A DNA stretch of 64,000 bases from an uncultured Erysipelotrichaceae bacterium (GTDB taxonomy: Bacteria; Bacillota_I; Bacilli_A; RFN20; CAG-826), in NCBI GenBank assembly GCA_902773005.1, contig CACYCS010000128.1, forward strand, positions 1,252 to 65,251, written 5' to 3'. Shown in pieces: positions 1,514-61,806 of the stretch. The notes beneath the pieces were generated by a model, which did no database searches, was not told where the DNA came from, and saw only the letters and a list, made by a program, of their open reading frames with translations. A program made the translations under genes and the position numbers. Each line of letters begins with the position of its first letter. The first letter of the stretch is position 1.

Positions 1514-2872
1514 CTACAAAAGGAAGGCCATATAGAAAGGCACATTGACCTTCGACTCGTCTTCTTGGAACGGCTTATTGCTCACGACGATCGGCTTGCG
1601 TGAAAAATCAGAGAAGCGCGCTTTGAATCTCGTCAGGGAATTCGCGCGCTTCGTCGATGACGATTTGCATTCGATCGGCTGGACTTTTCCGTATTTGGAG
1701 AACAGAAAGTCTATCTCGTAATAAGAAAGCACCGGCTTTTCCTTCGTTCCGCTGTTTTCCGACCAATAGCCATAATAAAGCGAATGGCCCGAGGCGCGTA
1801 GCATTTGGCAAAGCAGGTTCTCGTAGAGGTAGCCCTCGTTGCTTCGAAGCTCATCGGAAAGAAATTTCGAATAGAAGGAACGCGCATCCGCTACGGTCAG
1901 ACCATAATAATGGCTGAGCCCCAGGCCGATGTCATTCATATACACCTTGAAGGCAGAAGGATCGACGCCGGATTTCAATCCGACCTCGAAATTCGCGGTT
2001 CTAGGGACAAGCGAGAATATCTTGCTTTCGCTCGCTTTCTCCTTGGTTGAATGGAATAGGGATGTCCTAGGGTCGATGCCAAGCAGATTCAATGGCGTTT
2101 TCCCAGATTGGCGCGCCATCAAGGTAGGAAGCAAATCGTAAATGGCGCGCGTATTGGTTTTGTAGCTTCCATCGACTTTCGCCAAATCCTCTTCGTATAG
2201 GCCTAATATCTCGCGCTTCTTCCGCTCGACCATCGACATGTCGTTAGTCGATACGAACGCGCTTACGGCTTGAGGCATTCCCCCGATTGCCATATATAAG
2301 CGCAAATCGGCAAGTAGCGATGAGGAAGCCGGGGCATCCAAAAGGTAGCGGCGGCCGAGGTAAATTTCCCGCAGCAAATCAGATTTCGCCTTTTTTCCAA
2401 TCGCCCATAGGAATTCCTCGAAATCCATGGGGAAAAGCTCCATGCGCTCCTCTTCGCTTGGGATTTGGATTTGCTTTGAGTTCTCCTTGATTGAGATAAG
2501 GGACCCGGTTTCGATGTAATGGTACCTTCCGTCAAGGACCAGCAATTTGATCGCTTCGCGCGCTTTGACGCAGAACTGGACTTCGTCGAAGACCAGAAGC
2601 GACCCCTTTGGCAAAGGCGCGATGCCTAACGCTAGGAAAAGGCTCACGAAGAAGGCGTCCAAATCGCTGACATCGTCAAAGCATTTGGCAACATTAGCCG
2701 AGGCGTATTTGAAATCGATGATCTTGTAGTTCTTGCCATAATTGGCCTTGGCGAATTCGTCGCATAGCGTGCTTTTACCGACGCGTCTAGCGCCTTCAAT
2801 CAGCAAAGCGGAAGAACCGTTTGAGGCATTTTTCCAATCCTCAAGTTGCTTCATTGCCTTTCTTTCAAACAT
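1514..2872 (-). CDS. AAA+ ATPase of the AAA_14 + DUF4143 type (COG1373-like) with a C-terminal nuclease-like E..D..ExK block
   Basis: 452 aa. Walker A is GARRVGKST and Walker B is LLVFDEVQ. The C-terminus reads YENLL...YYEIDFLF...IECKSS. A GGGAGG RBS precedes ATG 2872. Confidence 0.75.
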   Translation of the reverse strand: MFERKAMKQLEDWKNASNGSSALLIEGARRVGKSTLCDEFAKANYGKNYKIIDFKYASANVAKCFDDVSDLDAFFVSLFLALGIAPLPKGSLLVFDEVQFCVKAREAIKLLVLDGRYHYIETGSLISIKENSKQIQIPSEEERMELFPMDFEEFLWAIGKKAKSDLLREIYLGRRYLLDAPASSSLLADLRLYMAIGGMPQAVSAFVSTNDMSMVERKKREILGLYEEDLAKVDGSYKTNTRAIYDLLPTLMARQSGKTPLNLLGIDPRTSLFHSTKEKASESKIFSLVPRTANFEVGLKSGVDPSAFKVYMNDIGLGLSHYYGLTVADARSFYSKFLSDELRSNEGYLYENLLCQMLRASGHSLYYGYWSENSGTKEKPVLSYYEIDFLFSKYGKVQPIECKSSSTKRANSLTRFKARFSDFSRKPIVVSNKPFQEDESKVNVPFYMAFLL

Positions 2873-2903
2873 TGTTCGCCTCCCATCGCATCTTTTTCAA
2901 GTC

Positions 2904-3019
2904 AAATGCAAATTTTGGTACAACAATTTTACACAAAAATGCAAATTTTGGTACATGTTTTTAGGTCGAAAATGCAAATTTTGGTACAACAATTTGGTTG
3001 AAAATGCAAATTTTGGTAC
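2904..3019 (+). repeat. Four direct 18-bp iterons AAATGCAAATTTTGGTAC at 33/33/32-bp phasing, in the promoter region of the DUF4143-type ATPase
   Basis: Exact copies at 2904-2921, 2937-2954, 2970-2987 and 3002-3019. Copies 1 and 3 extend to ...ACAACAATTT. Confidence 0.95.
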
Positions 3020-3025
3020 GAGAGT

Positions 3026-3427
3026 TTACATGAACAAAACCCATGGAGCGTCGTAAGAGGCGATTTTCTGGTCGTGCGTTAGAAATTTCATCCGCATGGC
3101 GGTCGACGCTCCAAGCAAAAGGCGGTCGAAAGGATCATGATGGTCCAAACCTTCTGGTTGGGCAATGCTCATGCTTGCTAAAAGCTGGTCTTGGGCAATG
3201 GGGAGCACCACTATGCCGGTTTCGTTGCAGCCTTCGATGAATTCCTCGGCGGTGAGGGTTATGGAGTCTGGCCTTTTCGCGTGCTTGATGCCGATTTCCC
3301 AAGCCGAAGCGAGGCTCACGAAGACATTGTTGCTTCGATCGGCAATCAATTCTTTGGCAAGCCTTGGCATCTTCTTTTCGCCAAGCAGATACCAATACGC
3401 CATATGCGTGTCGAGCAGGATGTCCAT
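3026..3427 (-). CDS. vapC: PIN-domain toxin, VapC family
   Basis: 133 aa. Motifs are MDILLDTH (N-terminal Asp), SLASAWEIGIK and HHDPFDRLLL. The start lies 2 nt after the antitoxin stop. Confidence 0.85.
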   Translation of the reverse strand: MDILLDTHMAYWYLLGEKKMPRLAKELIADRSNNVFVSLASAWEIGIKHAKRPDSITLTAEEFIEGCNETGIVVLPIAQDQLLASMSIAQPEGLDHHDPFDRLLLGASTAMRMKFLTHDQKIASYDAPWVLFM

Positions 3428-3429
3428 CG

Positions 3430-3675
3430 CTATTCCCCTTCGAACTCATTCGCGATTTCTTGATCTAACTCGAAGAAATCCGTTTTGGATCCTTTTGCGT
3501 TTTTGCCTTTTAGCACTCCAAAAGGGCGCGGCTCCTCGGGGGCAGGAGAAATAGGGACGCAGCGGGCGATTGGCTTGCCGCGGTTGCAGAAGATGATCTC
3601 CTTTTCCGCGCCGGACTCAAGCAGTTGCATGAGCTTCGACAAATTGGTCTTCGCCTCGTACACATTCACGGTCAT
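3430..3675 (-). CDS. Phd/YefM-type antitoxin
   Basis: The MTVNVYEAKTNLSKLMQLLE N-terminus is typical of Phd/YefM. AGGAGG sits 8 nt upstream of ATG 3675; the track start at 3681 is too close to the RBS. Confidence 0.8.
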   Translation of the reverse strand: MTVNVYEAKTNLSKLMQLLESGAEKEIIFCNRGKPIARCVPISPAPEEPRPFGVLKGKNAKGSKTDFFELDQEIANEFEGE

Positions 3676-9166: not shown

Positions 9167-9198
9167 CACGCGCCGCGACAAATGCGGCGCGTTTTCTT
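9167..9198 (+). terminator. Rho-independent terminator of the sugar operon
   Basis: Stem CGCGCCGC (9169-9176), loop GACAAAT, stem GCGGCGCG (9184-9191), then TTTTCTT. Confidence 0.8.
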
Positions 9199-9586
9199 GC
9201 ACATTAATCAGTATGACGTGAGCCTTTCTGGGTTCATGGGCTTCTTTTGAACCTCAAGAACTAACTCACGCGCCTTTGAATCCGCCATTCCTTTTCTTGG
9301 CGCTCTTTCAAGCGTGTCACCTCAGTAGATGAGATTGGGGGGTGAGCAAATACCAATGTCTCCCAACAAGCAGCGCATTATCCAATAGGCAGGCCACGGT
9401 GGGGTAAGCCTATTCTAGCGATACGCTCATTAGTCTAGCCAACTTGCGCTAAGCGAAGGGGAACAATCGCTCAATTCCTTCTGGCACATTGGAAATATCC
9501 GGCGATCGAGTTTGATTTGGGATGCAACTTCTTTGGAACTTAAGTTATCATTATTTAGGATTCGAAATGCAGAAAGGAGGCTTCCT

Positions 9587-10975
9587 ATGACGGAAGAAAA
9601 AATCAGAGAACTTCTAGACCGCGGCGAAGATTTCACCATCGAGTACAAAGAATGCACAGACGCTTTGAGCCATTCGGTCTTCGAGACTGTTTCCTCCTTT
9701 TCCAACAGATATGGAGGGTACTTGCTCCTAGGTGTGGAGGAAGTCGATCATAGAGGCGTCGTCAAAGGTGTCAACCGCAACGCGGCGCCTTCGATCAAGA
9801 AGAACTTCATCAACGTGCTCAATAACCCAGAGAAGATCTCGCCATCGCTATATCTGACCTTGGAGGAATTTGAGATCGATGGGAAATTGATTCTATGGGT
9901 CTATATCCCGGTCAGCTCACAGGTTATTTTCTGCGGCGGCAGAATCTATGACCGCAATGGCGATGCCGACCAAGACATCACGGATTCGACCGATTTGGTC
10001 GCGCACCTCTATGGCAGGAAGTCTCAAACATACCACGAAAGGAAGGTGTTCCCGTTTGCGACGACCGAACATCTCCGAATGGACTTGCTCCCGAAAATCC
10101 GCCAGATGGCGCTATCGAGAAGACCCGACCATCCTTGGAAGGATATGGACGATATGCAGCTTTTCAGAAACGCGGGCCTTTACGAAGATAACATACTGAC
10201 CGGCGAGAAGGGATTCAACTTGGCCGCAATCCTCCTTTTGGGAAAAGACGAGGTCATCCAATCCGCCTGCCCCGGATACCGCACCGATGCCATTTACCGC
10301 AACGAGAACCAAGATCGCTACGACGACCGCCTGATCGTTGAGACGAATCTCGTCGAGAGCTATCAGTTGCTCAAGGACTTTATCGCCAAGCATACGGACG
10401 ATAAGTTCTTCCTTGTGGATAATGTATCCACGAGCGTGCGGGATATTATCGCAAGGGAGATTGTGAGCAATGTCCTCGTCCATCGGGAATTCAGCAGCGC
10501 TTTTCCCGCGAAAATCATCATCGATCCGGAACGCATCGTAACGGAGAATTGGAACCGCCCCCAATTTCCCGGGAGAATCGATCCAAGCGCCTTCACTCCT
10601 TACCCGAAGAACCCGACGATCGCGAAGTTCTTCGTGAACATCGGGCTCGCCGATACTCTCGGCTCCGGTGTTCGCAATCTCTATAAGTATTCCAAGATAT
10701 ACTGCGGTGGTGAGCCCGAATTAGAGGAAGGGGACGTTTTCAAAATCTTCGTTCCTTTGAAGGCTAAGGCAAACGGCGAGACAAACCGCTACGGGCTGAC
10801 CGAGCGCCAACAGGGTATTCTGTCCTTGATTAGGGCCAACCCCACCATTAAAAGATCCGAACTGGCTGAAAAACTCGAGACGTCCGATAGAACGATTGAC
10901 CGAGAGATTTCGGAAATGAGAAAGAGGGCGTTGATTACTTTTGACAAGAAAACTCAAAAATGGATCTTCATATAA
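9587..10975 (+). CDS. AlbA_2 (Schlafen-like) DNA-binding domain protein with HATPase_c_4-like region and C-terminal wHTH (RecG-C-terminal-like putative regulator)
   Basis: EDFTIEYKEC...FSNRYGGYLLLGVEE is the AlbA_2 signature. ...REIVSNVLVHREF is HATPase_c_4-like. The C-terminus LTERQQGILSLIRANPTIKRSELAEKLETSDRTIDREI is an HTH. RBS AAAGGAGG precedes ATG 9587. Confidence 0.75.
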   Translation: MTEEKIRELLDRGEDFTIEYKECTDALSHSVFETVSSFSNRYGGYLLLGVEEVDHRGVVKGVNRNAAPSIKKNFINVLNNPEKISPSLYLTLEEFEIDGKLILWVYIPVSSQVIFCGGRIYDRNGDADQDITDSTDLVAHLYGRKSQTYHERKVFPFATTEHLRMDLLPKIRQMALSRRPDHPWKDMDDMQLFRNAGLYEDNILTGEKGFNLAAILLLGKDEVIQSACPGYRTDAIYRNENQDRYDDRLIVETNLVESYQLLKDFIAKHTDDKFFLVDNVSTSVRDIIAREIVSNVLVHREFSSAFPAKIIIDPERIVTENWNRPQFPGRIDPSAFTPYPKNPTIAKFFVNIGLADTLGSGVRNLYKYSKIYCGGEPELEEGDVFKIFVPLKAKANGETNRYGLTERQQGILSLIRANPTIKRSELAEKLETSDRTIDREISEMRKRALITFDKKTQKWIFI

Positions 10976-11007
10976 TGAACCGACTAGGATAAACCGTGGG
11001 GCCGCAG

Positions 11008-11300
11008 CAAAAAATCGTCGATCACACCGTCGGTCTCATAGGAGTCGCCAAGGAGTCGCCAAGGAGTCGCCAAGGAGTCGCCAAAAAAGCGTTAGTTCCA
11101 ATGGAAATCCGCATAGGAGTCGCCACGGAAAACCATCGATCACATCGCTGTTTTCATAGGAGTCGCCAAGGAGTCGCCAAGGAGTCGCCAAAAAAGCGTT
11201 AGTTCCAATGGCAATCCGCATAGGAGTCGCCACGGAAAACCCTCGATCACGCCGCTATTTCGTATGAATCGCCAAGGAGTCGTCATGGAGTCGCCAAGGA
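11008..11300 (+). repeat. Compound repeat array: about 2.5 units of ~118/108 bp, each containing tandem 11-mers GGAGTCGCCAA (about 12 GGAGTCGCC-like copies in total)
   Basis: GGAGTCGCC occurs at 11041, 11052, 11063, 11074, 11116, 11159, 11170, 11181, 11223 and 11287. Degenerate copies are at 11265 and 11276. Unit boundaries are marked by TCGATCAC(A/G)(C/T)CG at about 11016, 11135 and 11243. Confidence 0.95.
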
Positions 11301-11671
11301 TTGCGTTTCCATATGACATCTTTTATTAAGGAAAGCGACTCATATAGACAAGAGCCGCCTTATGGAAAGGGAGTGCCATCACCATTGGTTATGCCTTTTT
11401 TTAGACATAGAGATCCTTGATGGCGTTCCCCAAGAAATCAACGAGATGCCGCAATTGAACGCAAAATAGCTTAGGCGGTTATAACTTTTCAATTAGCTTT
11501 TGAAGCTTGCGGAATTCCCGCGGCGTCCTAACTTTCTTTGCGTCCTTGCCCCGCTTCGACTATGAAAACGCGGAAGCGCTGGCAAAGAAATCAGTTCGCT
11601 GCATAGGGCTTAACGAAATCAGTGTAGTGTCCTGATTTGCTGAAAAAGCGACACAATTTGGGACTTTGCCA

Positions 11672-12696
11672 TCACAAAAGGCGATCGATGGCCTGATATA
11701 TTGACATCGCGGCGTCTTTGGCGCGGCCGACGTCGAATTCAGGCTGATGGTTGGTAAGGCGGAGGACCAATAAGGCGACGACAGGAAGCGCGACGATGAT
11801 GGCGTTGATGGTCATCCGAATTCGGGTCTTTCTCCATTGCTTCACCGTTAGGCCAGCAGACTTTGGCACCTGAAGCAACGCAAGCACCACAACCGAGGTC
11901 ATGAGAATGAAGTAGGCATTGATCGCGAATAGATACCCCGCGGCCGCCATCGCGATCCATTGCCCATTCGCAAGGGCATATCCAACGGTGCAAAGAGGCG
12001 GCATAAGCGCGGTCGCGATGGCAACCCCTGGAATGACGTTCGAATATTGGCTTTGCCTAGTCGAGCGAGGATGCCCGCGATTCCGCCCGCGGTCGCGATG
12101 ATCACATCGAACACCGTGGGACTTGTCCTCGCTTTGAGTTGAGCGGTGAATTGGGTTACCCCGCAAGCGCGGCAGATCAAGAAGAAGATGGTCGCGATGG
12201 CTAAAGACGAGGCCACTTGGATGGCAAATCCCGCAAGGTGGCGGAAGAATAGATGCCTCTTTCCGGTGCAGATATCATAGGCAAGAGCCAGCAAAGTCCC
12301 CATTAAGGGCGAGATGAGCATCGCCCCGATGATGACGGCGATCGAATCGGTGATGAGGCCCACGCAGGCGATGAGTATCGCGCAAAGAAGGATCGTGGTG
12401 TTGATCCCCGTGATTCGGCCATTGCTCAATAGCCTTTCTCCAATCTCTTCGTGGGCCAAGGCATCATCGCGGATCGAGAAGGTCTTGCGAAGGAGGTATT
12501 TGAAATGGCGCCAGCTCGATTTCTTCGCGGCCCTATCGCGCATCGTGAGGATCTTGTCGGCTTCCTCGATGTCGGTGTCGTCCGTAACGTCGCGGTGAGA
12601 TATCTCCTCCACCGCTTCCGCGCTTATCTCCTCGTCCGAGACGAATTGGTCCAAGACATGCTTTTCGTGTTTCTCTTGCTTATCGTCTTCTTGCAT
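11672..12696 (-). pseudogene. DUF389-family membrane protein split by a frameshift near 12030-12075
   Basis: ORF 11899..12696 (...ISPLMGTLLALAY...VIIATAGGIAGILA) and ORF 11672..12166 (...NVIPGVAIATALMPPLCTVGYALANG...) are consecutive parts of one DUF389-like protein in two frames. Confidence 0.6.
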
Positions 12697-14254: not shown

Positions 14255-14626
14255 TTCTTCGGCTGTGGGCGAAATATCGATACACGTCCCTATCGGATTG
14301 CTTTCATTCGACAAATTTAGGCGTAGATAGCAAGTCGGCTTGTTCATTAAAACAGGCCGATTTCTTTTTGCGGAGCAAGAAGAAGTTAAGGCTGAGCACC
14401 ATATTCACATGCGCGAATGCTTCGGCAAGCCCCCGCGTTTGGCGTGCCTAAACCAAGGCAAATCGCGCCCAGTGCGTTTGTCATGCATCGCTTTCAATAA
14501 CGGAGAGGAAAAGGACGATGTGGGGAGTGCGAATCCTCCTATTTTCGGTCTTGGTCATGTCTCCCACTTGGTGAGTATTTGAGCCGACGGGGTTAGGATT
14601 GCTGCGTGGCAGAAGATAGTAAGTAT

Positions 14627-14697
14627 TATTGAAGTTACTTCAACAACATATTGAAGTGTTATTGAAGTTGTTATTGAAGTGTAATTGAAGTAAAATC
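14627..14697 (+). repeat. Left copy of a 70-bp direct repeat flanking the second AlbA_2 gene; built from six TTGAAGT half-sites
   Basis: TATTGAAGTTACTTCAACAACATATTGAAGTGTTATTGAAGTTGTTATTGAAGTGTAATTGAAGTAAAATC. The first two half-sites form the palindrome TTGAAGTtACTTCAA. Confidence 0.95.
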
Positions 14698-14716: not shown

Positions 14717-16159
14717 ATGATCCTTACTGAATTATTTCCGTCCTACACATTAGAGGATGGCAATTTTGAAGCGAAACTTATTTTGGAAAGAGACAAGCCA
14801 TTAAGCTGGTTAAAGACAGTTGACGGCTTCGCGAATGCCAAAGGCGGCACTCTTGTTTTAGGCGTGGAAGATGACGGGAAGACCGTCATTGGCTTTGACT
14901 TAGAAAAGTTAGCCAGCGAAAAGGATTTTTTCCTCAAGACCGTCCGGGAGCACTTCAAAGTTGCTCCGGTGGTCGATATTAAGCCCGTTCCTTATGAGAT
15001 ACACGGCAAGACGAGGTATCTTCTGACGATTTTCATTCCTTCGTCAAAAAGCAAACCCGTGATTCTTTCCTACGAGGGCTTGGGTTTGATCTTCATGCGC
15101 AGAGACGGATTCACGAGTCCTGCCACGGCCGAGGAAATCCGCCAAATGGCCGTCTCCACCCCTGCCGTAGCTTTCGACAGGCAAATCACAAATGTGAACT
15201 ATAATCCGGAAGATTTCCGAGGCTTCTATGCCTTTTTCCAAGAAAGAAACGAAGGGAAAATACCAAGCGAGAAAGGGTTGAAGTCTCTCCCGTTTTTCTC
15301 CGATGATGGCAAACTCTTTATGGGCGCTTATTTGTTCTCGGATTCTTTTTCCGGAGGAGAAACCAAAGTCGTATGTACCCAATACCCAGGGAAGAACCGC
15401 GGTTCGAGGGAGGTCATCGCGACACAAGAATACGAGGGTGGCCTTATTGGTGCTTATCACTTCATCGACGATTTCGTACGCTCAAGAGAAAATCACGGCT
15501 ACATCAAATATGCCACGGGCCGCAAGGACGTGGATAGCTATCCTAACCGCGCCCTTTTCGAGGCGATCATCAACGCCCTGGCCCACCGCGACTATCTTCT
15601 TTCTGGAGAGCAGATAAGCGTGGATATGTTCGTCGATCGGCTTGTGATTTCCACGCCCGGTAATTTCTACGAAGTGGGGAACCTCCCTGTGACCTATGAA
15701 ATCAAGGACCTCCTATCTAGGAAAAGGAACGAACTTGTTTGCAGTATCTTCGTCTACGCCCATGCGATGGAAGCAAGAGGGAGCGGTTTTGAGTTGATTC
15801 AGGAAGAATATGCCGAGCAAGACCGTGCACACCGTCCATGCGTTTACTCCCATTCAAATCAATTCACGATCATCCTTCCAGACATCACTTATGCACCCGG
15901 TGTGGACATCGCCAATGAAAGCATCGAGGTTCTCGGTGAAATCCAAAATGAAACAGAACGCGACACCGCGATCTTGGCTTTTTGTTTTGATCAGCCCAAA
16001 TCCAGTCGCGAGATTGCCACCTACTTAAAGATCAGTGACTCCTCCTTCCTTAGAAAACAGTTGCTTGCAAGACTCGAAGAACAAGGGTATCTCATCAAAA
16101 AGAGCCAAGGAAGAACAACGCTGTATCAATCAAACCCCGCCAGAATAAAGCTTCGTTAA
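14717..16159 (+). CDS. AlbA_2 (Schlafen-like) domain protein with HATPase_c_4-like region and C-terminal wHTH
   Basis: FEAKLILE...VDGFANAKGGTLVLGVEDDG is the AlbA_2 signature. ALFEAIINALAHRDY is HATPase_c_4-like. The C-terminus is SSREIATYLKISDSSFLRKQLLARLEEQGYL. Confidence 0.75.
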   Translation: MILTELFPSYTLEDGNFEAKLILERDKPLSWLKTVDGFANAKGGTLVLGVEDDGKTVIGFDLEKLASEKDFFLKTVREHFKVAPVVDIKPVPYEIHGKTRYLLTIFIPSSKSKPVILSYEGLGLIFMRRDGFTSPATAEEIRQMAVSTPAVAFDRQITNVNYNPEDFRGFYAFFQERNEGKIPSEKGLKSLPFFSDDGKLFMGAYLFSDSFSGGETKVVCTQYPGKNRGSREVIATQEYEGGLIGAYHFIDDFVRSRENHGYIKYATGRKDVDSYPNRALFEAIINALAHRDYLLSGEQISVDMFVDRLVISTPGNFYEVGNLPVTYEIKDLLSRKRNELVCSIFVYAHAMEARGSGFELIQEEYAEQDRAHRPCVYSHSNQFTIILPDITYAPGVDIANESIEVLGEIQNETERDTAILAFCFDQPKSSREIATYLKISDSSFLRKQLLARLEEQGYLIKKSQGRTTLYQSNPARIKLR

Positions 16160-16165
16160 GAGGCT

Positions 16166-16235
16166 TATTGAAGTTACTTCAACAACTTATTGAAGTGTTA
16201 TTGAAGTTGTTATTGAAGTGTAATTGAAGTAAATC
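16166..16235 (+). repeat. Right copy of the 70-bp direct repeat flanking the second AlbA_2 gene
   Basis: Identical to 14627-14697 except for one A/T substitution and one A indel. It starts 7 nt after the stop codon. Confidence 0.95.
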
Positions 16236-46433: not shown

Positions 46434-46545
46434 CGATAATTAGCGTTATTCAAGCATTTTTGGTCGGATAACGCTGTTTATCCAGCGATTTCAGCCCGAT
46501 AATTAGCGTTATTCAAGCATTTTTGGTTGGATAACGCAGTTTATC
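46434..46545 (+). repeat. Two 49-bp direct repeats (63-bp period), each with inverted AGCGTTAT / ATAACGC arms, upstream of ATPase paralogue 4
   Basis: CGATAATTAGCGTTATTCAAGCATTTTTGGT(C/T)GGATAACGC(T/A)GTTTATC at 46434-46482 and 46497-46545. Confidence 0.95.
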
Positions 46546-46835: not shown

Positions 46836-48122
46836 ATGAACCTAGGAAAAGAGCCTGTGCCCATTGGAGTCAGGGATTTTAGATTGATGGCCAGTAGCCC
46901 TCATTACATCGACAAAACCGGATTTATCGCAGACGTTTGCAAGTGCCCAGGATGCGTAATCGCTTACCATAGGCCGGACGGATTCGGCAAAAGCTTGGCC
47001 CTATCGATGCTAGAATGCTTTTTCTCGATGGACGAAGATAGCCGGAGCTATTTCAAAGGCAAAGCCATTGCGAAGCTAAATGGAGGGGTCTGCATGGAGG
47101 AAATGAATGCCTATCCCACGATCCATTTGGACCTAAGCGCGCTGGATGCGCCCGATTACCCATCCATGATGGAATACGTCGCAAATATGATGGCTTCCGC
47201 TTACGAAAAGGCAAACGTCTCGTCCTTTAAAAGCATTTGGGAATACGATAGGAAAAGTATCAAAGCGATTCTAAGCAAAGCCGCTAATGAGGTCGAACTG
47301 GAATTTTCTTTGCAACGCCTCAGCATGTATTTGAAGGAAGAAACCGGCAAAAGGGCAGTGATCCTGATCGATGGCTATGACGCGCCTGTCATAGCGGGTG
47401 CGAAACACGGCTACGCCAAAGAGGCGGGCGGATTCTTCCAGGCGTTCTTCGGCGCGGCGCTAAAGGGGAACGAGGCTATGGAGCGCGGCGTATTGGTCGG
47501 AGTCGTTCCAATCATCTACGCCTCGGATTTCTCGGGCTTCAATAACCTTATCTATAGGTTTGGATACGATGACATAGGAGAAGAAAGATTCGCCTTCACG
47601 CGTAAAGAAACGATGGATTATCTTCGTTTATACGATAAGAATTTCGAAGAAAAAATGGTTCAAGAATGGTATGGGGGATACCGTTTGTCCAACCAAGAAA
47701 GTTTCTGCCCACGTTCGATTCTTGCCTTTGCCAATGGCGATTTTGAATTCAAATCATATAAGGAATCATCGAGTATTGACCCTCTTTTGCTAAGGAACGA
47801 AGACCCTGCCGAAGTCGTCCAATGCGTAGAGGGATTGATTTCAGGAAAACCGACAGTTTGCCTCACACCAACGACGATAGGGCCAGACTCTATAGCGGAA
47901 CAGCCAAAGTTCAGGGAGTTATCGCTATATTCTGGATACTTCACCGTCGACGATATTGATACGCGCGAGTATCATCTCTTCACGCGCATCAAAATACCCA
48001 ATATCGAATCAAGAAAAGCACTCGAAAAGAACGTTCTTGGCGCACTTATGATTACTCCCCAAACGGCATCGAAAGCTAAGCGCCAAAAACCATCTTCAAA
48101 AGCAACGAAAAAAGCTGCTTAG
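46836..48122 (+). CDS. Predicted AAA-ATPase (PF09820-like) lacking the usual C-terminal PD-(D/E)xK_9 domain
   Basis: PIGVRDFRLMASSPHYIDKTGFI...YHRPDGFGKSLALSMLECFFS is the family N-terminal signature. It ends in a K/A-rich tail with no ExK block. Confidence 0.7.
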   Translation: MNLGKEPVPIGVRDFRLMASSPHYIDKTGFIADVCKCPGCVIAYHRPDGFGKSLALSMLECFFSMDEDSRSYFKGKAIAKLNGGVCMEEMNAYPTIHLDLSALDAPDYPSMMEYVANMMASAYEKANVSSFKSIWEYDRKSIKAILSKAANEVELEFSLQRLSMYLKEETGKRAVILIDGYDAPVIAGAKHGYAKEAGGFFQAFFGAALKGNEAMERGVLVGVVPIIYASDFSGFNNLIYRFGYDDIGEERFAFTRKETMDYLRLYDKNFEEKMVQEWYGGYRLSNQESFCPRSILAFANGDFEFKSYKESSSIDPLLLRNEDPAEVVQCVEGLISGKPTVCLTPTTIGPDSIAEQPKFRELSLYSGYFTVDDIDTREYHLFTRIKIPNIESRKALEKNVLGALMITPQTASKAKRQKPSSKATKKAA

Positions 48123-49775: not shown

Positions 49776-52700
49776 ATGAAAGAAAAGAAAACCAAAATCC
49801 TACTCTTGAGCGCGTTGGCCGCGATGACCCTTGCTTCCTGCGGCGGCACTCCTCAAGTTTCATCCAATCCGTCTAATTCCTCTGCAGATCCTGCAAGTGC
49901 ACCCGCTTCGTCTGAACCTGTGCAAGAGAGCAAATCCAGCCAGGCTCCAGTCGATGATTCTAAGCCCGCCGAGCAATCCGAAGATTCAGTTGTGATCTCT
50001 GATGATCAGCCTGCGCAATCCATCCCCGAGCAGCCCTCTTCCGAGGAGCAGGAACTCCAGGATTGGGTCGGTCAGGCCTTCGTCGGCCAATACCAAGGCG
50101 GATTCACCGGCCTCATCATCAATGAGGACAAATCCACCAGTTGGGACACCGACAAGACCCACTATCCCGCCATCCTCGAAGTCCTCGATAATGGCATCTA
50201 TCACATCTATTCCGCCGACACCGTTCCTAGCGACGAGAAAGTCGACGTCTACACCGACGGCACCATGGCCTATTTGACCCATGACGCGGTTGAGAAAGAC
50301 GCATTCATCGTCGATAAGGGCGCTGAATACGAAGCTGCCAACGCCATGGCTAAAAAGGCCGATGGCTCCTTGATTTTCGGCAGCATCATGGCCGGCAACA
50401 AACTCAAATTCTTCCGCGCTGCCAATGGCGTCTTCGACTTCGACATCAAAGTCGATGTGAACTACGGCGCCTCGATCGAGGCCCTCGGCGCGATCTTCGA
50501 CGTCACCGTCGGAGATGTGACCGCCACCTACCGCACCACCGTCGCTGGCAACGCGGCGGCTGGCCAATACGCGATCATCGAAGACTATCAGATCGTCATC
50601 ACCGCCTATGGCGGCATGGAAGGCGACCTCGTCGTCGCAAGGAACCAGGGCGAGATCGTCTACGTCACCCTCGATGGCGTGGCAGTCGATCCTGAGCTCA
50701 TCTCCGAAGAGGATGGCGCGATCACCATCAAAGGTGCTGAGCGTGTCCTCGATCAGACCGACGTGAGCCACATGCAGTGGGTCTACTCCGCCACGAAGTA
50801 CATCCTCGACGAGGCGAGCCACACCTACGAAAGCGAAGATGCGACTAGCCGCGAAGACGTCTTCCACGTTCTCGACATGAACGAGACTCAATTCACCGCG
50901 GAAGTCGGCGCAGACGGCAACCTCTGGGCGACCTTCACCCCGAGCGTCAGCGGTTTCTTCAACGTCAACATCATCACCGGCACCGGCGACAATGACTACT
51001 ACGGCAGCTACGACTACATCGCGATTTATCGCGCGGATGCGGATTCCTATGGTTCTCCGTATACCTACGCGGAAGACTATGCGTATTACTATGAAGATTA
51101 CTATGGCTATGACACCGAAGAGGCGGCCATCGAAAACTTCTTGGTCACCGCGGGCGTAACCTACGTCATCAAGGCGTCCAATAACGACGACATCTATAAC
51201 GTCCTAGGTGATGACGATTCCGAGCACGAAGGCGAATCCATCACCATCGGCTACAGCTACACCGCCTTCGATATCGTCACCTATAACGGCGATAACGGCG
51301 CCCTCGTCATCGAGTCCTATAACGGCACCTTCCGCAGCGCGATCTTGAACGGCCAGCCTCTCGACAAGGCGACCTTCGTCAATAACGTCTTGACCGCGAA
51401 GGCCACCGTCATGGACTTCTCGAACCCCGCCAATCCGCAAAGGACCATCACCACGATCACGATCACCGTCGATCCGGCCACCAGCACCTACGTCTACGAA
51501 TCCGCTTCGGAGACCGACAGCGTCTTCCATGTCCTGACAGAGGAAGATTCCGGTAACATCTATCAAACCATCGTTGGCGAAGACGGCAACCTCTGGGCCA
51601 TCTTCACTCCGACCAGCGGCGGATTCGTCACCGTCGAAGAAACAGTCACTGCCTCCACCGGCGGCTACTACAGCAACGACGGCTACATCGCGATCTATGA
51701 TGCCACCGCCGCAAGCTACGTCACCGCGAACGCTTTGGCGAAGGCCGACGGCGGCTCAACTGTCGCGAACAGCATGGGCAGGATCGAGAACTTCGTCGTC
51801 GAGGCCGGAAAGTCCTACATCATCAAGGCCGGCGCCTACGCCGATAGGGACAAAGACCTAGGCGCGACCGGATCAACCTACGCCGGCAACGCCGAAGCCA
51901 TCAGCTTCACCTTCTCCTCCGTCCTCACCAGGACCTTCGCAGGCGACAACGGCAACCTCGTCCTATCGACCGACGAGGGCGAATTCGTTAGCGCCAGCAT
52001 CGGCGGAAGCACGATCTCGAACGTCAACTTCGTCGAAAACGATGATGGAACCTTGACTTTGTCCGTCATCGGGGCAGGCACGATCGACAACACCGATCCT
52101 CTCGACCCGATTCGCAACTCCACCGACACTGTCTACACCCTCGACCCCGATCAGTTGACCTATGAAGTCGCTCAGACCGCTTCTTCCGTCCATATCTTCC
52201 AGGAAGTCACCTCCAACTCGGCCGTGATCACCGCCACCGTCGGCGAAGACGGCAACCTCTGGGCGAAGTTCACCGCTCCTAGCGATGGCTTCCTAAGCGT
52301 CAGCGAGCTCGTCGCGGTCGCCGATGATCGCCTTTCCATCTTCCCGACCTCCGCTGCGCCGTTCACGAGCTACTCGAGCGCCATTGCCACGGCCGACAAA
52401 GCATATTCGGGCGGTCTCGAGTCCCTCGAAGCAGTCGCTGTAACCGCTGGAACGACCTACATCATCAAAGCCGGCTATTACTCCGATGCCTCCAAGGCAG
52501 TGACCGACACAGGCTCCGCCCACAAAGGCAAAACCGCGAGCATCAAGGTCGAATTCAACACGCTAGTCACCGCAACCTATACCGGCGATAACGGCGATCT
52601 TGTTGTCTCAAGTCTCGGTCAAACCATCACCTCCGCTACCCTGAACGGCACTGCCATCACGGGAGCGAAGTTCGACGAGGACGGCAACATCCTGGTCGAA

Positions 52701-53888
52701 GGCGCCGCGACGATCGATAACGCTGATCCTCTCAACCCGACCAGCACCTCGACCAACACCACCTATGTTCTCGACGAAGCTAGCGGGAGCTACACCGTGA
52801 GCGTTGATACCCACACCGCCAACATCTTCCACGAAGTCACTGGAAGCGAAGTCGTTACCGACGTCGTTGGCAAGGACGGCAACCTCTGGATCAAGTTCAC
52901 CGCGCCTAGCGAAGGCGAGATCACCGTCGATGAGCTCGTCGCCTGTCACACCGACAACTACATCCAGATCTATGCTTCCACCGCGAATTCCTTCACTAGC
53001 AGCAACGCCGCGGCAACGGCCGATAATGGCGGAACTGCCGCTGGCAGCGGAAAGATCTCCAACTTCGTCGTCCACCAAGGCGAGACCTACATCATCAAAG
53101 CCGGCGCCTGGGCCGATAGGGACAAACTCGTCACCGCGACGAATTCGAGCTACGCTGGCAAGACCGAAAGCGTGAGCTTCACCTTCGACGCTTATGACGA
53201 AAAGGTCTATACCGCGGAAGGGCAGCCTGATCTCAAAGTTGTCCTGAAAGGCGATGCGCTGCAGAGCGTTACCCTCGGTGGCGAAGCCATCGAAGGAGCC
53301 GCCCTCAAAGATGGCAACATCGTCGTTGAAGGCGAAATCGAAGTGATCGAAGGCGCTTGCTACCAGCCCGTCCTCACCTACGTCCTCGATGATGAAAACG
53401 GAACCTATGCCATCCAGAAGGACTCCATCCCCTACGTCGAAAGCGACGCTTACTCCATCGAGCAGGGAAGTCCTTACGGCTTTACCCATGACGAGGAGAA
53501 CGGAACCTATACCTCCAGCAACGCCGGCGTGAATAGTTCCAACGCGACCATGACCATCACCTTCGACGAAGACGGCTACTTCTTCTTCGACTACGATGTC
53601 GTTAGCGAAGGTACGACCACTCCTTGGGATTACCTGACAGTTACCCTCAACGGCGTAACCGTCGACGGATTCACCAAAGTTGGCGGCGAGAGCGGAAAAA
53701 CCGGTCGTGCCATGATTACCGTGAAAGCGGGCGATATCCTCGTGATCAAGTACGTAAAGGATTTCGGCGGCGAGAGCGGACGCGACTCCGCGATCATCTC
53801 CGGACTCTCCTTCCTCGTCCAGCCTTCTGAAGAAGAGGAAGTGCCTGAGGAGAACCCCATCGAAAATCCGGATCCATCCAACGAGTGA
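49776..53888 (+). CDS. 1370-aa surface lipoprotein with four ~210-aa internal repeats and a distinct C-terminal beta-rich domain
   Basis: MKEKKTKILLLSALAAMTLASCGG is a lipobox signal peptide. The recurring block is (F)H(V/I)(L/F)..V(G)(E/K)DGNLW(A/I).FT(A)PS.GF..V.E ... (Y)I.IY ... F.V.AG..YIIKAG. It occurs four times between about 50860 and 53150. Confidence 0.8.
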   Translation: MKEKKTKILLLSALAAMTLASCGGTPQVSSNPSNSSADPASAPASSEPVQESKSSQAPVDDSKPAEQSEDSVVISDDQPAQSIPEQPSSEEQELQDWVGQAFVGQYQGGFTGLIINEDKSTSWDTDKTHYPAILEVLDNGIYHIYSADTVPSDEKVDVYTDGTMAYLTHDAVEKDAFIVDKGAEYEAANAMAKKADGSLIFGSIMAGNKLKFFRAANGVFDFDIKVDVNYGASIEALGAIFDVTVGDVTATYRTTVAGNAAAGQYAIIEDYQIVITAYGGMEGDLVVARNQGEIVYVTLDGVAVDPELISEEDGAITIKGAERVLDQTDVSHMQWVYSATKYILDEASHTYESEDATSREDVFHVLDMNETQFTAEVGADGNLWATFTPSVSGFFNVNIITGTGDNDYYGSYDYIAIYRADADSYGSPYTYAEDYAYYYEDYYGYDTEEAAIENFLVTAGVTYVIKASNNDDIYNVLGDDDSEHEGESITIGYSYTAFDIVTYNGDNGALVIESYNGTFRSAILNGQPLDKATFVNNVLTAKATVMDFSNPANPQRTITTITITVDPATSTYVYESASETDSVFHVLTEEDSGNIYQTIVGEDGNLWAIFTPTSGGFVTVEETVTASTGGYYSNDGYIAIYDATAASYVTANALAKADGGSTVANSMGRIENFVVEAGKSYIIKAGAYADRDKDLGATGSTYAGNAEAISFTFSSVLTRTFAGDNGNLVLSTDEGEFVSASIGGSTISNVNFVENDDGTLTLSVIGAGTIDNTDPLDPIRNSTDTVYTLDPDQLTYEVAQTASSVHIFQEVTSNSAVITATVGEDGNLWAKFTAPSDGFLSVSELVAVADDRLSIFPTSAAPFTSYSSAIATADKAYSGGLESLEAVAVTAGTTYIIKAGYYSDASKAVTDTGSAHKGKTASIKVEFNTLVTATYTGDNGDLVVSSLGQTITSATLNGTAITGAKFDEDGNILVEGAATIDNADPLNPTSTSTNTTYVLDEASGSYTVSVDTHTANIFHEVTGSEVVTDVVGKDGNLWIKFTAPSEGEITVDELVACHTDNYIQIYASTANSFTSSNAAATADNGGTAAGSGKISNFVVHQGETYIIKAGAWADRDKLVTATNSSYAGKTESVSFTFDAYDEKVYTAEGQPDLKVVLKGDALQSVTLGGEAIEGAALKDGNIVVEGEIEVIEGACYQPVLTYVLDDENGTYAIQKDSIPYVESDAYSIEQGSPYGFTHDEENGTYTSSNAGVNSSNATMTITFDEDGYFFFDYDVVSEGTTTPWDYLTVTLNGVTVDGFTKVGGESGKTGRAMITVKAGDILVIKYVKDFGGESGRDSAIISGLSFLVQPSEEEEVPEENPIENPDPSNE

Positions 53889-57374: not shown

Positions 57375-57731
57375 GTGCGTAATTATAAACCAGCGGGAAT
57401 ATTTTGGCATGAAGTTCCGCGAAATGGGGAAAATCTCGATTTTCTATATCTAAACGCCCGGAAAAATCTCGATTTTTATGCGCGAATAATCGATTGTTTT
57501 TCGATTTCTATCCGTAATTTCGAATAGAAAAAATTTCTATCCGTAATTGCGAATAGACTTTGCGGATAGAATTCGGATTGGCCTAATGGGGACTTATGTA
57601 GACCCTGGCGAATGGAATCAACTGCTGATACACCGCTATCCAAAGCTGGAAATAAAAACAATTTAAGTATTACTTACTTAATCAGTATCGCGAGCTATCG
57701 CCTTTGTGGTAATCTATTGTGGGTAAAAACG

Positions 57732-60017: not shown

Positions 60018-60027
60018 ATCCTCGCCA

Positions 60028-60081
60028 AATTATAATCCCCCAAAAGTCGATGTTTTGATTGAGTTTTGGGGGATTATAATT
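60028..60081. repeat. 54-bp palindromic element, copy 1 (18-bp perfect arms AATTATAATCCCCCAAAA / TTTTGGGGGATTATAATT)
   Basis: Arms at 60028-60045 and 60064-60081, with an 18-nt loop. Confidence 0.95.
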
Positions 60082-60195
60082 TCCGCGCTTATAGTGAATA
60101 GTGTCAGTTTAAAGCAGATTCCTAAGGTTTCATCATGTGTTTTTTTCTTTTTCTAGCCGCATTATTTTTACTTGTAGAAATATTGCTTGAAAAAC

Positions 60196-60245
60196 ATAAT
60201 CCCCCAAAAGTCGACTTTTACACCGACTTTTGGGGAGTTATAATT
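60196..60245. repeat. Palindromic element, copy 2, ending 29 nt before the ATPase paralogue 5 start codon
   Basis: ATAATCCCCCAAAAGTCGACTTTTACACCGACTTTTGGGGAGTTATAATT. Confidence 0.95.
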
Positions 60246-60273
60246 GATTGACCAAAGTCGTGGGAGGTGCCCA

Positions 60274-61755
60274 ATGAGCTATATATATGGTAGAAAACCG
60301 GAAATGGCGGAGCTAGAACGCCTCAGCCAATCCAAGAAAGCCGAATTCCTAGCGGTATATGGGAGGCGAAGAGTTGGCAAGACCTATCTGATTACGAGAT
60401 TCTTCGAGAATCAGTTCGCTTTCTTCCATACGGGTTTGCCCCCGTACAATGAAGGGGATGGCCTCGATTCAAGTGGCGATGGGAGGAAAGACCACCGCAA
60501 GATGCGCGAACAATTGAATCACTTCGCCGAATCGCTAGCGGAATATGGCTATGCATCCAAAGGGCCTTTGAACTCATGGCTTGATGCCTTCTCCGCGCTC
60601 AAAAGCCTTCTCAAACCCCTGCTTAACAAAGGAAAGAAAGTCGTTGTCTTTTTGGATGAACTCCCTTGGATGGATACGCCGAAAAGCGGATTCCTCCAAG
60701 AGTTTCAGGCTTTTTGCAATTCGTTTGCATGCCGATTTGACGACATCCTTCTCGTCGTCGCAGGAAGCAATATCACCTGGATCAGCAGCGAGCTCATCAA
60801 CGGCTATGGTGGGCTATATGACCGCCTGACCGCCGAGATGAAGCTTTCGCCCCTTTCCTTAGGGGAATGCGAGGATTATCTGCTGCGCGGAAAAGGGATA
60901 CGCTTCTCCCGTTACGATTTGGCTTTCGCTTACATGGTCTTTGGCGGCGTCCCCTACTACCTCGACAAATTCAAGACGGGATTGTCATTGCCTCAGATCA
61001 TCGATTCCTGCTTCTTCGGCAAAAACGCAACGCTCCGAAACGAATTCCATAGGCTTTTCCTCTCCTCTTTCCGAAACGGGGAGAAGATTCAGCAAATCGT
61101 TACGGCGTTATCGGAGCGTTCATTGGGGCTTACGCGCGAAGAGATTGCATCCTCTCTGGGGCTGACTTCAGGAGGAAACGTAAGCGAATACCTTTCCTCT
61201 TTGGAGAACGCGGACTTCATCGTCTCATATACTCCGCTAGGCGAAGCGAAGAACGCCGTCTACTATCGCTTGATCGACCCGTTCTGCCTGTTTTATCTCC
61301 GCTTCGTACTTGGCTCGACCAAATTCGACGAAAAGCTCTTCTCAGGGCTATCGGCGGGAGGAGCCATCAATTCATGGAGGGGCTTTGCGTTTGAAAACGT
61401 CTGCTTCAATCACATCGCCTCCATCAAAAAGGCGCTTGGCGTAAGCGGCGTTTTCAGCAAGCAATATGCTTTCATCGACACGAAGGACAAGAAGAAGCAA
61501 GCCCAGATAGATATGGTAATCGACAGGGCGGACAATATCGTGAACCTATGCGAGATGAAATTCACGAAGTCAAGCTATGAACACGACAAAACCGAGCATG
61601 ACCGCCTATTGAATCGCGAGAATCGTCTAGAGGCGCTTATTCCGAAGCGAAAAGTTATTCGGAAGGTCCTCATCACCTCAATCGGGCTCAAAAACGGCAT
61701 CCACTCGAGCGATTTCGACAAAGTCTTGGTGCTGGACGATCTCTTTGACGAATAA
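60274..61755 (+). CDS. AAA+ ATPase with C-terminal E..D..ExK block; paralogue 5 of 5
   Basis: RBS GGGAGG precedes ATG 60274. Blocks are YGRRRVGKTYL, VVFLDELPWMDT, VVAGSNITW, GGLYDR and GGVPYYL. The C-terminus is AFENVCFNH...AQIDMVIDRADNIVNLCEMKF. Confidence 0.8.
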   Translation: MSYIYGRKPEMAELERLSQSKKAEFLAVYGRRRVGKTYLITRFFENQFAFFHTGLPPYNEGDGLDSSGDGRKDHRKMREQLNHFAESLAEYGYASKGPLNSWLDAFSALKSLLKPLLNKGKKVVVFLDELPWMDTPKSGFLQEFQAFCNSFACRFDDILLVVAGSNITWISSELINGYGGLYDRLTAEMKLSPLSLGECEDYLLRGKGIRFSRYDLAFAYMVFGGVPYYLDKFKTGLSLPQIIDSCFFGKNATLRNEFHRLFLSSFRNGEKIQQIVTALSERSLGLTREEIASSLGLTSGGNVSEYLSSLENADFIVSYTPLGEAKNAVYYRLIDPFCLFYLRFVLGSTKFDEKLFSGLSAGGAINSWRGFAFENVCFNHIASIKKALGVSGVFSKQYAFIDTKDKKKQAQIDMVIDRADNIVNLCEMKFTKSSYEHDKTEHDRLLNRENRLEALIPKRKVIRKVLITSIGLKNGIHSSDFDKVLVLDDLFDE

Positions 61756-61756
61756 C

Positions 61757-61806
61757 ATAATCCCCCAAAACTCGACCAATACATCGACTTTTGGGGGATT
61801 ATAATT
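61757..61806. repeat. Palindromic element, copy 3, starting 2 nt after the ATPase paralogue 5 stop codon
   Basis: ATAATCCCCCAAAACTCGACCAATACATCGACTTTTGGGGGATTATAATT. Confidence 0.95.

Follow-up and report, generated by a model that had tools for sequence, protein, structure and literature searches.

Private repeat sets beside eight ATPase-nuclease and AlbA_2-type genes of an uncultured Erysipelotrichaceae bacterium: candidate autoregulated, mobile single-gene modules

Introduction

The DNA considered here, hereafter the window, is a stretch of 64,000 nucleotides from contig CACYCS010000128.1 of an uncultured Erysipelotrichaceae bacterium, in which eight genes (g1 to g8) encoding ATPase-nuclease or AlbA_2-type proteins each carry their own set of DNA repeats near the ends of the open reading frame (ORF). 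We consider it probable, with real room for doubt, that these genes are autoregulated, horizontally mobile single-gene modules whose products bind their own operators. The closest described proteins are phage-defence candidates (PDCs), families drawn from genes that lie inside other defence systems (Payne et al., bioRxiv 10.1101/2024.01.29.577857) and whose association with other systems is reported to be only weak (bioRxiv 10.1101/2024.01.29.577857). Two of these families, PDC-S27 and PDC-S01, combine an ATPase with a PD-(D/E)xK domain and rank with the most plentiful loci of this kind in prokaryotes and in the rumen, and their validation is pending (PMC12988326, PMC13356809). PDC-S01 is reported to rank fourth in frequency among the defence-type genes of prokaryotes and to be the commonest single locus of rumen genomes, and PDC-S27 is also abundant (PMC12988326, PMC13356809). 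For the AlbA_2/HATPase_c_4 type, TrlG is known to restrict the growth of Photorhabdus at high temperature.

The window genes g4 to g8 and g1 match the PADLOC models of PDC-S27 and PDC-S01, respectively, from end to end, and they share with these families a single-gene organisation and an abundance in rumen and gut metagenome-assembled genomes (MAGs) and in archaea. The families are defined by protein hidden Markov models (HMMs) and by embedding, whereas the window genes lie among housekeeping genes; a Pfam scan of the window neighbours found no known defence system around g1 and g4 to g8, and the embedding is therefore not seen here. An earlier reading of this DNA, made from its letters and translations (the sequence-only reading), had listed a family of defence ATPase-nucleases with self-marking sites as one option, and the membership of six genes in the two candidate families is the extent of the support for it. 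The same reading was aware of no described system with this organisation. The protein families had in fact already been described as defence candidates, but no account of the cis-architecture was found: cognate repeats, promoter palindromes and 33-bp phasing are not described in the PDC, DUF4143, DUF234 and AlbA_2 literature that we searched, and one may exist outside it.

Several known systems resemble the regulatory logic proposed here. In archaea with several replication origins, each origin is paired with a neighbouring orc gene. Archaeal Orc1/Cdc6 proteins, with their origin recognition boxes (ORB and mini-ORB), share with PDC-S27 the AAA+ and winged-helix fold and the placement of the gene beside inverted repeats that its product is thought to recognise. 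They differ in that PDC-S27 shows no Pfam Cdc6/ORC match, has an additional PD-(D/E)xK domain and has sites that centre on the promoter. Furthermore, five PDC-S27 copies lie within 64 kb of a bacterial contig, the cumulative GC skew shows no turn at these loci (2-kb windows, a coarse and weak test) and nothing suggests replication; replication origins were rejected as an explanation on these grounds. By analogy, PDC-S27 would resemble Orc1/Cdc6 in site recognition at most, and we regard it neither as a member of that family nor as an initiator.

The controller (C) proteins of restriction-modification systems with their C-boxes, and autoregulated toxin-antitoxin operons, offer a second likeness, in logic only: a mobile, potentially toxic module in which a regulator acts on paired palindromic operators over its own promoter and expression is independent of the host. 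Here, regulator and effector would be one polypeptide, the protein families are unrelated, and the sites are laid out differently, with 33-bp phased arrays and copies 3' of the gene. The iteron systems (plasmid Rep proteins, and ParR with the 11-bp repeats of parC) also place clustered 11-12-bp tandem repeats by the gene of the presumed binder, as is seen for g2, g3 and the AlbA_2 homologues, but the present genes are chromosomal, belong to other protein families and have no replication or partition genes with them. Lastly, REPtrons, which encode a transposase associated with repetitive extragenic palindromic elements (RAYT), and integron cassettes resemble g8, g6 and g3 in that palindromic repeats of one class, particular to the gene, stand on both sides of it, and in that the cassette-sized unit is found in differing contexts. 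The window genes differ from these in having no Y1 transposase or integrase, no dispersed repeats, no cassette arrays and a promoter of their own.

The eight proteins

The five ATPases that the sequence-only reading had grouped as paralogues are g4 (18774-20201, plus strand), g5 (31687-33141, minus), g6 (33625-35070, minus), g7 (44954-46381, minus) and g8 (60274-61755, plus). They align over their full length at 39-46% identity and all contain the blocks it had listed, namely GRRRVGKT, DE.PW.DT, GS..SW, GGLY.R, GG.P.YL and FEN...Q.D...R.D...LCE.K. All five match Pfam ATPase_2 (PF01637) at 43.6-59 bits against a cut-off of 33.2, as well as the PADLOC PDC-S27 model (PDLC04984) at E values of 4e-145 to 9e-165 over about 473 of its 474 profile positions. 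DUF234 (PF03008), which the sequence-only reading had suggested, was not reported at E <= 0.01 in the Pfam scan of the eight proteins, and a search of NCBIfam with ten proteins returned no match.

An AlphaFold model of g8 (predicted local distance difference test score, pLDDT, 88) shows an AAA+ domain and a lid, then a winged helix (about residues 266-335) and, at the C-terminus, a PD-(D/E)xK domain. Its nearest fold in the PDB is the Pyrococcus Walker ATPase 2qen, followed by Orc1/Cdc6 and subunits of the origin recognition complex (ORC), MalT and STAND proteins; the Foldseek E values against ORC/Cdc6 chains range from 7e-9 to 1e-6, and 2qby, 1fnn and 1w5t are among the best matches. A profile search also gave a weak match to the winged helix-turn-helix (wHTH) of MarR at residues 254-315. 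When the C-terminal domain of g8 was modelled alone (pLDDT 78), a restriction-endonuclease-like fold was obtained with similarity to MspJI, AF1548, McrC, Cas4-like proteins, DdmD, LmuA and Can2/Card1 (E = 3e-4 to 1e-1). The putative catalytic residues E374, D413, E427 and K429 are invariant across 50 PDC-S27 sequences. The earlier assignment of this C-terminus to a PD-(D/E)xK core thus holds, as a predicted nuclease domain.

The remaining three genes were also assigned as before, with Pfam scores above cut-off for the domains that had been named. Gene g1 (1514-2872, minus) encodes an AAA_14 (76 bits, cut-off 27) and DUF4143 (45.6 bits, cut-off 28.1) ATPase-nuclease, which matches the PADLOC PDC-S01 model (PDLC04786) at E = 1.6e-83 over residues 1-451, its full length. 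Gene g3 (14717-16159, plus) encodes SLFN_AlbA_2 (49.4 bits) and HATPase_c_4 (55.3 bits) domains, both above cut-off, and a C-terminal wHTH. Gene g2 (9587-10975, plus) encodes SLFN_AlbA_2 (57.5 bits), with HATPase_c_4 (19.1 bits) and a C-terminal helix-turn-helix, HTH_11 (24.9 bits), both below cut-off. The list of orphan ATPases had been incomplete: a ninth, of 428 aa, was missed at 46836-48122 (plus), divergent from g7. It belongs to PF09820 (AAA-ATPase_like) and has no PADLOC match.

Repeat sets in the window

For all eight genes, Tandem Repeats Finder, a repeat finder and direct reading confirmed repeats no more than about 60 nt away from one end of the ORF. The sets of g1, g2 and g3 are direct repeats. 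Upstream of g1, four direct repeats with a period of 33 nt (2895-3024, minus strand) keep the core GTACCAAAATTTGCATTT with varying spacers and end about 23 nt before the start codon. A PIN-domain gene (3026-3427, minus), for which no partner antitoxin ORF was identified, ends 2 nt from this array. Downstream of g2, twelve copies of AGGAGTCGCCA are clustered with a 107-nt super-period (11036-11300, plus). A CRISPR-like array was rejected for these 11-mers, as there are no spacers, the 11-nt units abut directly and no cas genes are present. Gene g3 has a 69-nt upstream block (14626-14694, plus) with a palindrome, TTGAAGTTACTTCAA, followed by four copies of TATTGAAGT at 11-12-nt spacing; this block overlaps a promoter-like site matching 9 of 12 consensus positions (14668-14696), and a downstream block (16165-16233, plus) is 99% identical to it.

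The five PDC-S27 genes carry inverted repeats or half-sites. Upstream of g4 are two palindromes of about 43 nt (AACCGCTGG...CCAGCGGTT), 63 nt apart (18615-18720, plus), with a 9/12 promoter-like site directly 3' of them. Gene g7 is arranged alike: two 49-nt units, 96% identical and 63 nt apart, each hold a AGCGTTAT..ATAACGCT inverted repeat (46434-46545, minus), and a promoter-like site lies directly downstream of the repeats. Gene g5 has two palindromes of about 45 nt (ATTCCGCT..AGCGGAAT) downstream (31572-31680, minus) and a degenerate palindrome with AATTCCG arms upstream (33194-33254, minus), where it overlaps a 10/12 promoter-like site. For g6, a 118-nt upstream block (35088-35205, minus) with repeated TTATAAGTGTCAA and TTATTTTTGA(C/T) half-sites is 81% identical to a downstream copy (33500-33617, minus). 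At g8, a distal palindrome (60025-60081, plus) and a proximal one (ATAATCCCCCAAAAGTCGA..TCGACTTTTGGGGAGTTAT; 60189-60245, plus) lie upstream, and a third (61750-61806, plus) overlaps the stop codon. The proximal palindrome encloses an 11/12 match to a sigma-70-type promoter, TTTACA-16-TATAAT, at 60217-60244. Of the four genes that the sequence-only reading had described as bracketed on both sides, g3, g6 and g8 are so, while the upstream copy of g5 is degenerate.

With 0-4 mismatches allowed, no motif was found in the 64 kb other than next to its own gene, apart from three chance matches of 9-11-mers. The exclusivity that had been claimed for the repeats therefore stands within the window but not across genomes, where g3 homologues that are only 40-50% identical keep the TTGAAGT core and the TTGAAGTTACTTCAA palindrome. 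Exact direct 10-mer repeats were found in 10 of the 14 intergenic regions that touch the eight genes and in 2 of the 18 other intergenic regions. The claim that no other gene has comparable flanks was thus largely borne out and slightly overstated, as two further intergenic regions hold three small repeat sets between them (57504-57557; 30814-30873 and 31082-31178).

We considered whether the repeats might be generic dispersed elements, such as repetitive extragenic palindromic (REP) sequences, miniature inverted-repeat transposable elements (MITEs) or bacterial interspersed mosaic elements (BIMEs), or else neutral relics of local duplication. In favour of this, the repeats are palindromic, intergenic and 45-120 nt long, and their copy number varies between strains. 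However, no copy was found away from its cognate gene, either in the window or in 1.43 Mb of related loci, where every window motif that occurs adjoins an orthologue of its own gene; repeats beside unrelated genes, which the sequence-only reading had named as evidence against it, were thus not seen. The repeat cores are conserved and the spacers diverged at g1 and g3, which argues for selection on the core and not for recent duplication. In addition, each protein family has its own recurring repeat architecture, the two arms show compensatory changes (both described below) and no RAYT or transposase is present. Dispersed elements or duplication relics are consequently a very improbable origin for the repeats.

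A GGDEF-EAL gene and a divergent gene of 200 aa are separated by a pair of 25-nt direct repeats (ATTTCTATCCGTAATTTCGAATAGA; 57504-57575) that contain inverted repeats; they look like an ordinary operator, and a few other window genes also have small repeats. A near-perfect 55-nt palindrome (33400-33454; 27-nt arms, 89% complementary, TTAACGC..GCGTTAA) lies between the g6 downstream block and the g5 upstream region and is in neither of these repeat families. This palindrome may terminate transcription in both directions, or it may be an operator left behind by a lost module.

Recurrence of the repeats in the protein families

The PDC-S27 sample consisted of 80 homologues, 39-47% identical, from gut and rumen MAGs of Bacteroidales, Lachnospiraceae, Treponema, Succinivibrionaceae and others. 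Coverage by direct and inverted 10-mer repeats was observed to peak at -150 to 0 relative to the gene, with 12-20% against 2-6% elsewhere (78 loci). Both kinds of repeat are present upstream in 39% of 61 scorable loci compared with 4% of 217 control upstream regions (Fisher p = 2e-11), and an inverted-repeat score of at least 12 was reached in 46% of loci and in 0% of shuffles. Repeats were not enriched in the downstream regions of the same homologue loci, and downstream copies of the upstream repeat were found at 13 of 77 loci against 2 of 77 controls. The typical element is a palindrome of about 50 nt in which an AT-rich box (TTTTATT or TTATAAT) and a variable GC-rich core of about 6 nt are followed by a loop and then by both again in mirror image; at many loci there is another copy, or two, at a distance of 50-105 nt upstream. 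The loop of the Bacteroidales palindromes has the sequence TTTTTGTATCTTTG, in which TAnnTTTG is contained, with an exact match to TAnnTTTG in 8 of 13. We take TAnnTTTG to be the Bacteroidetes -7 promoter box. With this box in the loop, transcription would start inside or after the right arm, which favours a DNA operator over an RNA hairpin. Invertible promoters (invertons) were rejected for these palindromes, as the Bacteroidales loops are only about 16-28 nt long and no recombinase or invertase is present in the window.

For PDC-S01, an AAA_14-like gene that adjoins the g8 orthologue of another genome (locus L082) starts with its own set of AAAAACGTGCAACA.TTGTA.GAAATTGAATT units, three in number and repeated every 32 nt (1975-2060), which gave the first hint of a general phasing. 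Within the loci already gathered, all four PDC-S01 homologues have three direct repeats with a period of about 30-33 nt. An alignment scan of viral contigs then supplied 80 loci in 37 clusters, 35 of which had enough upstream sequence. When the 220 nt upstream are scored, 28 of these 35 non-redundant clusters have 32-34 nt as the period of their best direct repeat, whereas shuffles and other segments of the same loci give 2.6-4% (p ~4e-33), and the motif sequences differ between lineages. Since this phasing is recurrent, the four 33-nt units of g1 can be read as a family signature. On the IMG/VR viral contigs (L184-L263), 83 stretches encode PDC-S01 relatives and an AlbA_2 alignment found 6 matches; scans of the viral contigs with the single g1 and g3 proteins gave none. 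PDC-S01 genes may often reside on prophages or on contigs classed as viral.

About half of 29 metagenome cluster representatives of the AlbA_2 type were observed to have tandem direct repeats of 11-12 or 23 nt upstream, and four further AlbA_2 loci carry the block on both sides of the gene. Cognate repeats are thus a property of all three families, PDC-S27, PDC-S01 and AlbA_2.

The number and phasing of these sites could also be read as serving the effector, that is, a defence role, with the repeats acting as a home site at which the ATPase-nuclease is loaded, stored or kept inactive (a 'self' address or decoy) until it is released or activated by invading DNA. Simple repression would need fewer sites than the 4-12 that are arrayed here with a phasing of 33 or 11 bp, sites also occur downstream of the gene at some loci, and the Orc/STAND-like fold is capable of oligomerising. 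The genes belong to defence-candidate families (PMC12988326), and the growth restriction by TrlG is a precedent for an AlbA_2/HATPase_c_4 protein. On the other side, the sites centre on the promoter, the window genes lie outside any defence island and no anti-phage activity has been shown for these families (PMC12988326). The data do not separate a home site from autoregulation, and both can coexist; as the principal function of the repeats, we judge it unlikely.

Co-variation of half-sites and winged helix

Thirteen homologous Bacteroidales PDC-S27 operators could be aligned for co-variation. When their half-sites are scored as a 14-pair 'helix', 92.9% of the cells pair compared with 75.6% in shuffles (0 of 500 shuffles as high), and slid controls pair at 41-59%. 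Changes on both sides were found in 33 cells against 11 in shuffles (again 0 of 500), with most half-site changes at four core positions. That the half-sites change together, with a promoter box in the loop, points to a symmetric DNA site and not to an RNA stem.

The distance between operator cores was then compared with protein identity in sliding 33-aa windows, with the rest of the protein regressed out. This comparison used the same 13 loci, because a common half-site register sought across 83 PDC-S27 loci gave 25 usable sites with inconsistent registers. Only the windows over residues 265-321, which cover the winged helix, track operator-core distance (rho -0.28 to -0.46), whereas all others are at or above -0.17. 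With locus labels permuted and the minimum taken over all windows, the family-wise p is 0.005 (n = 13 loci). The co-variation of gene and repeat across orthologues, which the sequence-only reading had put forward as a check, is therefore observed in these 13 loci. Of the analyses made, it alone bears on which protein binds the sites, and it points indirectly to the gene's own product as the probable binder, which would act through its winged helix. Furthermore, the module crosses phyla with lineage-specific sites and encodes one candidate binder, which again argues for its own product.

These results bear on the possibility that self-recognition plays no part and that the repeats are ordinary promoter or terminator features, sites of a host regulator, or RNA structures (a hairpin in the 5' untranslated region, an attenuator or a terminator) that travel with the gene. 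The palindromes could indeed fold as RNA or as cruciforms. As an example, the downstream palindrome of g8 begins at the stop codon, where a terminator would be placed, and a minus-strand terminator-like site was called inside the proximal palindrome; small operator-like repeats also occur at other window genes. However, motifs that differ between paralogues of the same genome and cross phyla with the gene make a shared host factor unlikely, and operator-core divergence tracks the protein's own winged helix. For an RNA element, the promoter boxes in the palindrome loop would leave one arm only in the transcript, and the direct repeats beside g1, g2 and g3 could hardly form hairpins. There are also no Rfam matches, and known RNA families and tRNA-linked islands were searched for and rejected, none being found. 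Taken together, an account by host factors or RNA structure alone is improbable.

Transfer of gene and repeats

Gene and repeats were seen to travel jointly, in genomic settings that are unrelated to each other. Six PDC-S27 pairs have a nucleotide identity of 72-90%; in five of them, similarity is confined to the ORF and 105-158 nt upstream, with unrelated flanks and nothing in common downstream, and the remaining pair is syntenic. At 63-72% identity, 51 pairs were compared, and in none does homology extend past the ORF on its downstream side or into neighbouring genes. The g8 orthologue of L082 (65% protein identity) has the palindrome on both sides, about 85% conserved compared with 64% for the ORF, and its homology to the window stops at the palindrome ends. 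In another relative, the 97%-identical L081, a single upstream palindrome is present without the 114-nt spacer, where the window has two copies. Orthologues of g3 (81-83% identity) lie between pheT and mraZ or in other contexts, each with a block on both sides, and the two blocks are more alike within one genome than between orthologues. Several contigs, 1.5-1.7 kb long, end inside the blocks.

The region 3' of g8 (62296-63929 in the window; 3464-6141 in L081) is rearranged between the two: parts of the metallophosphoesterase gene and of a 352-aa gene are missing in L081, which has about 1.9 kb extra that includes an AbiEii-family gene. The region adjoining g8 is thus strain-variable.

In L176, a relative with conserved synteny, g3 and g4 are present together with their repeats, and g2 is missing. 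Here the window holds a strain-specific segment of 2468 nt (9197-11664, plus) with g2 and its array, in place of 88 nt in L176. The segment sits between convergent DUF4867 and DUF389 genes, directly after a terminator hairpin, and comparison of the window with L176 revealed no target duplication and no terminal repeats. One breakpoint lies 390 nt upstream of g2 and the other 364 nt past the end of the array, and some 750 nt within the segment contain no ORF of at least 100 aa. The neighbouring DUF389 gene (11672-12696, minus) looks frameshifted, with overlapping ORFs at 11672-12166 and 11899-12696, and is an intact gene of 341 aa in L176. The g2-array link is weak and comes from this shared insertion only. 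Upstream of g4, the window and L176 are about 96% identical, with 10 differences of which none falls in the palindrome arms, a near-identity that leaves little to compare.

These patterns raise the possibility that the repeats are the ends or recombination sites of selfish single-gene cassettes, which the encoded protein would excise, copy or insert, with regulation being secondary. The block-gene-block arrangement of g3, g6 and g8, of the four AlbA_2 loci and of the 13 PDC-S27 loci noted above fits this, as do the g3 orthologues in differing contexts with homology bounded by blocks that are more alike within a genome, and the short contigs that end inside them. The copy number of the g8 palindrome differs from L081 with breakpoints in the palindromes, the PD-(D/E)xK catalytic residues are invariant, and PDC families were first found as genes embedded inside other systems (bioRxiv 10.1101/2024.01.29.577857). 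However, most homologues have no downstream copy and their homology ends at the stop codon; target-site duplications and solo blocks were not found in the 1.43 Mb of loci; the g2 breakpoints lie away from the repeats, with no terminal repeats; and 33-bp phased direct repeats that occur upstream only are unlike element ends. Moreover, no recombinase or transposase fold was found by Pfam on the eight proteins or by fold searches with the g8 model, and the absence of transposase, integrase and cas genes stated by the sequence-only reading was confirmed by Pfam for the 38 other ORFs of the window. Its option of selfish cassettes is therefore supported as to the joint movement of gene and repeats, but not as to a mobility mechanism, a target-site duplication or an empty site with a solo repeat. 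Likewise, the breakpoints at repeats that it had proposed to look for were seen in the g8 copy number and not in the g2 insertion. We find cassette ends unlikely as the main role of the repeats. A homing endonuclease was rejected as well, since the sites are intact on both sides and are not split by the gene.

Proposed mechanism

The reading that we favour, namely autoregulation, takes promoter, private operators and ORF as one self-contained and horizontally transferable unit. The product would bind its own repeats through its winged-helix domain and control its own transcription, most likely by repression. This self-control would keep a potentially harmful nuclease at a low level independently of the host, and paralogue-specific operator cores would allow several copies to share a cell without cross-talk. 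Two kinds of product are envisaged: in PDC-S27 and PDC-S01, an AAA+ ATPase that resembles Orc1/Cdc6 and has a winged helix and a predicted PD-(D/E)xK nuclease domain, and in the other genes an AlbA_2/GHKL-type protein with a C-terminal wHTH. The layouts of the sites are consistent with binding by oligomers. For example, the PDC-S27 palindromes present two co-varying half-sites around the promoter, the 3-4 direct sites of PDC-S01 recur every 33 bp, a spacing of three helical turns that would put them all on the same side of the DNA, and the 11-12-bp tandem sites of the AlbA_2 type would place one site at each turn. The downstream copies may act as a second operator for looping, as a terminator or insulator, or as a recombination substrate. 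Self-recognising autoregulated modules had been one of the options of the sequence-only reading and are now the best supported of them, through the Orc-like fold, the promoter overlap and the co-variation of half-sites and of operator with winged helix. With regard to the promoter, upstream repeats lie within about 150 nt of the gene, overlap predicted promoters at g3, g5 and g8 (enclosing the promoter at g8) and abut them at g4 and g7.

Several observations weigh against autoregulation or limit its basis. All promoter calls are consensus matches. The palindromes of g4 and g7 lie just upstream of the predicted -35 element, a position that fits activation as well as repression. The array of g2 is downstream only, and it is absent at the one closer g2 homologue, which is 46% identical. 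The ninth ATPase has no repeat set in its 230-nt upstream region, which also makes it a useful negative comparator. The 13 operators of the co-variation set were chosen for alignability and their palindrome structure was read off the same sequences, and the privacy of the motifs applies to the 64 kb and the 1.43 Mb of related loci. Finally, the downstream copies at g3, g5, g6, g8 and the 13 of 77 PDC-S27 loci go beyond plain autoregulation. As they are unexplained by it, both the cassette-end reading and the loading, storage or decoy reading stay alive. A more far-reaching proposal would combine these elements: PDC-S01, PDC-S27 and the AlbA_2/wHTH proteins, which are among the most abundant defence candidates of prokaryotes, would be sequence-specific, Orc-like 'addressed' ATPase-nucleases. 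Each lineage would have a private DNA address by which the gene is switched on and off and which also delimits a gene-sized selfish cassette, with the protein itself contributing to its copying or movement. Such genes would represent a new class of minimal mobile element and not conventional immune genes, a proposal that we hold to be unlikely but worth stating.

In either case, known candidate proteins and a familiar regulatory logic are joined here with a cis-architecture for which no description was found, and the combination is family-wide and testable. A lineage-specific DNA site beside each gene offers the first concrete handle on PDC-S01 and PDC-S27, which are families without a known mechanism. 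Autoregulation predicts sequence-specific DNA binding through the Orc-like winged helix, and the exact sequences given above can be used in electrophoretic mobility shift assays, footprinting, chromatin immunoprecipitation and reporter assays. They also provide natural orthogonal operator-protein pairs. The repeat signatures (33-bp phasing and promoter palindromes) could be used by annotation pipelines to set module boundaries and start codons. The question that is raised is whether these are immune genes, selfish cassettes or both.

Other features of the window

The neighbours of the eight genes are mostly housekeeping genes, including those for TruB, fucose isomerase, an aquaporin, an FeFe hydrogenase and a MoxR-BatA operon, and a GGDEF-EAL protein is also encoded. 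Judged by the aquaporin, the nearest named relatives are MAGs that carry the label Clostridia or Clostridiales. Two DUF3990 genes (24191-25508, plus; 25880-27402, minus) each have a partner, which is a 221-aa HTH_3 protein in one case and a 293-aa protein without a Pfam match in the other. This arrangement is kept in L176, and the pairs may be toxin-antitoxin-like. A transglutaminase-like protein (37559-38085) contains a long Gly/Ser/Glu-rich low-complexity stretch that arises from 12-30-nt tandem repeats. In addition, a protein of 1370 aa without a Pfam match (50600-53600) was observed to have at least four internal repeats of about 650 nt.

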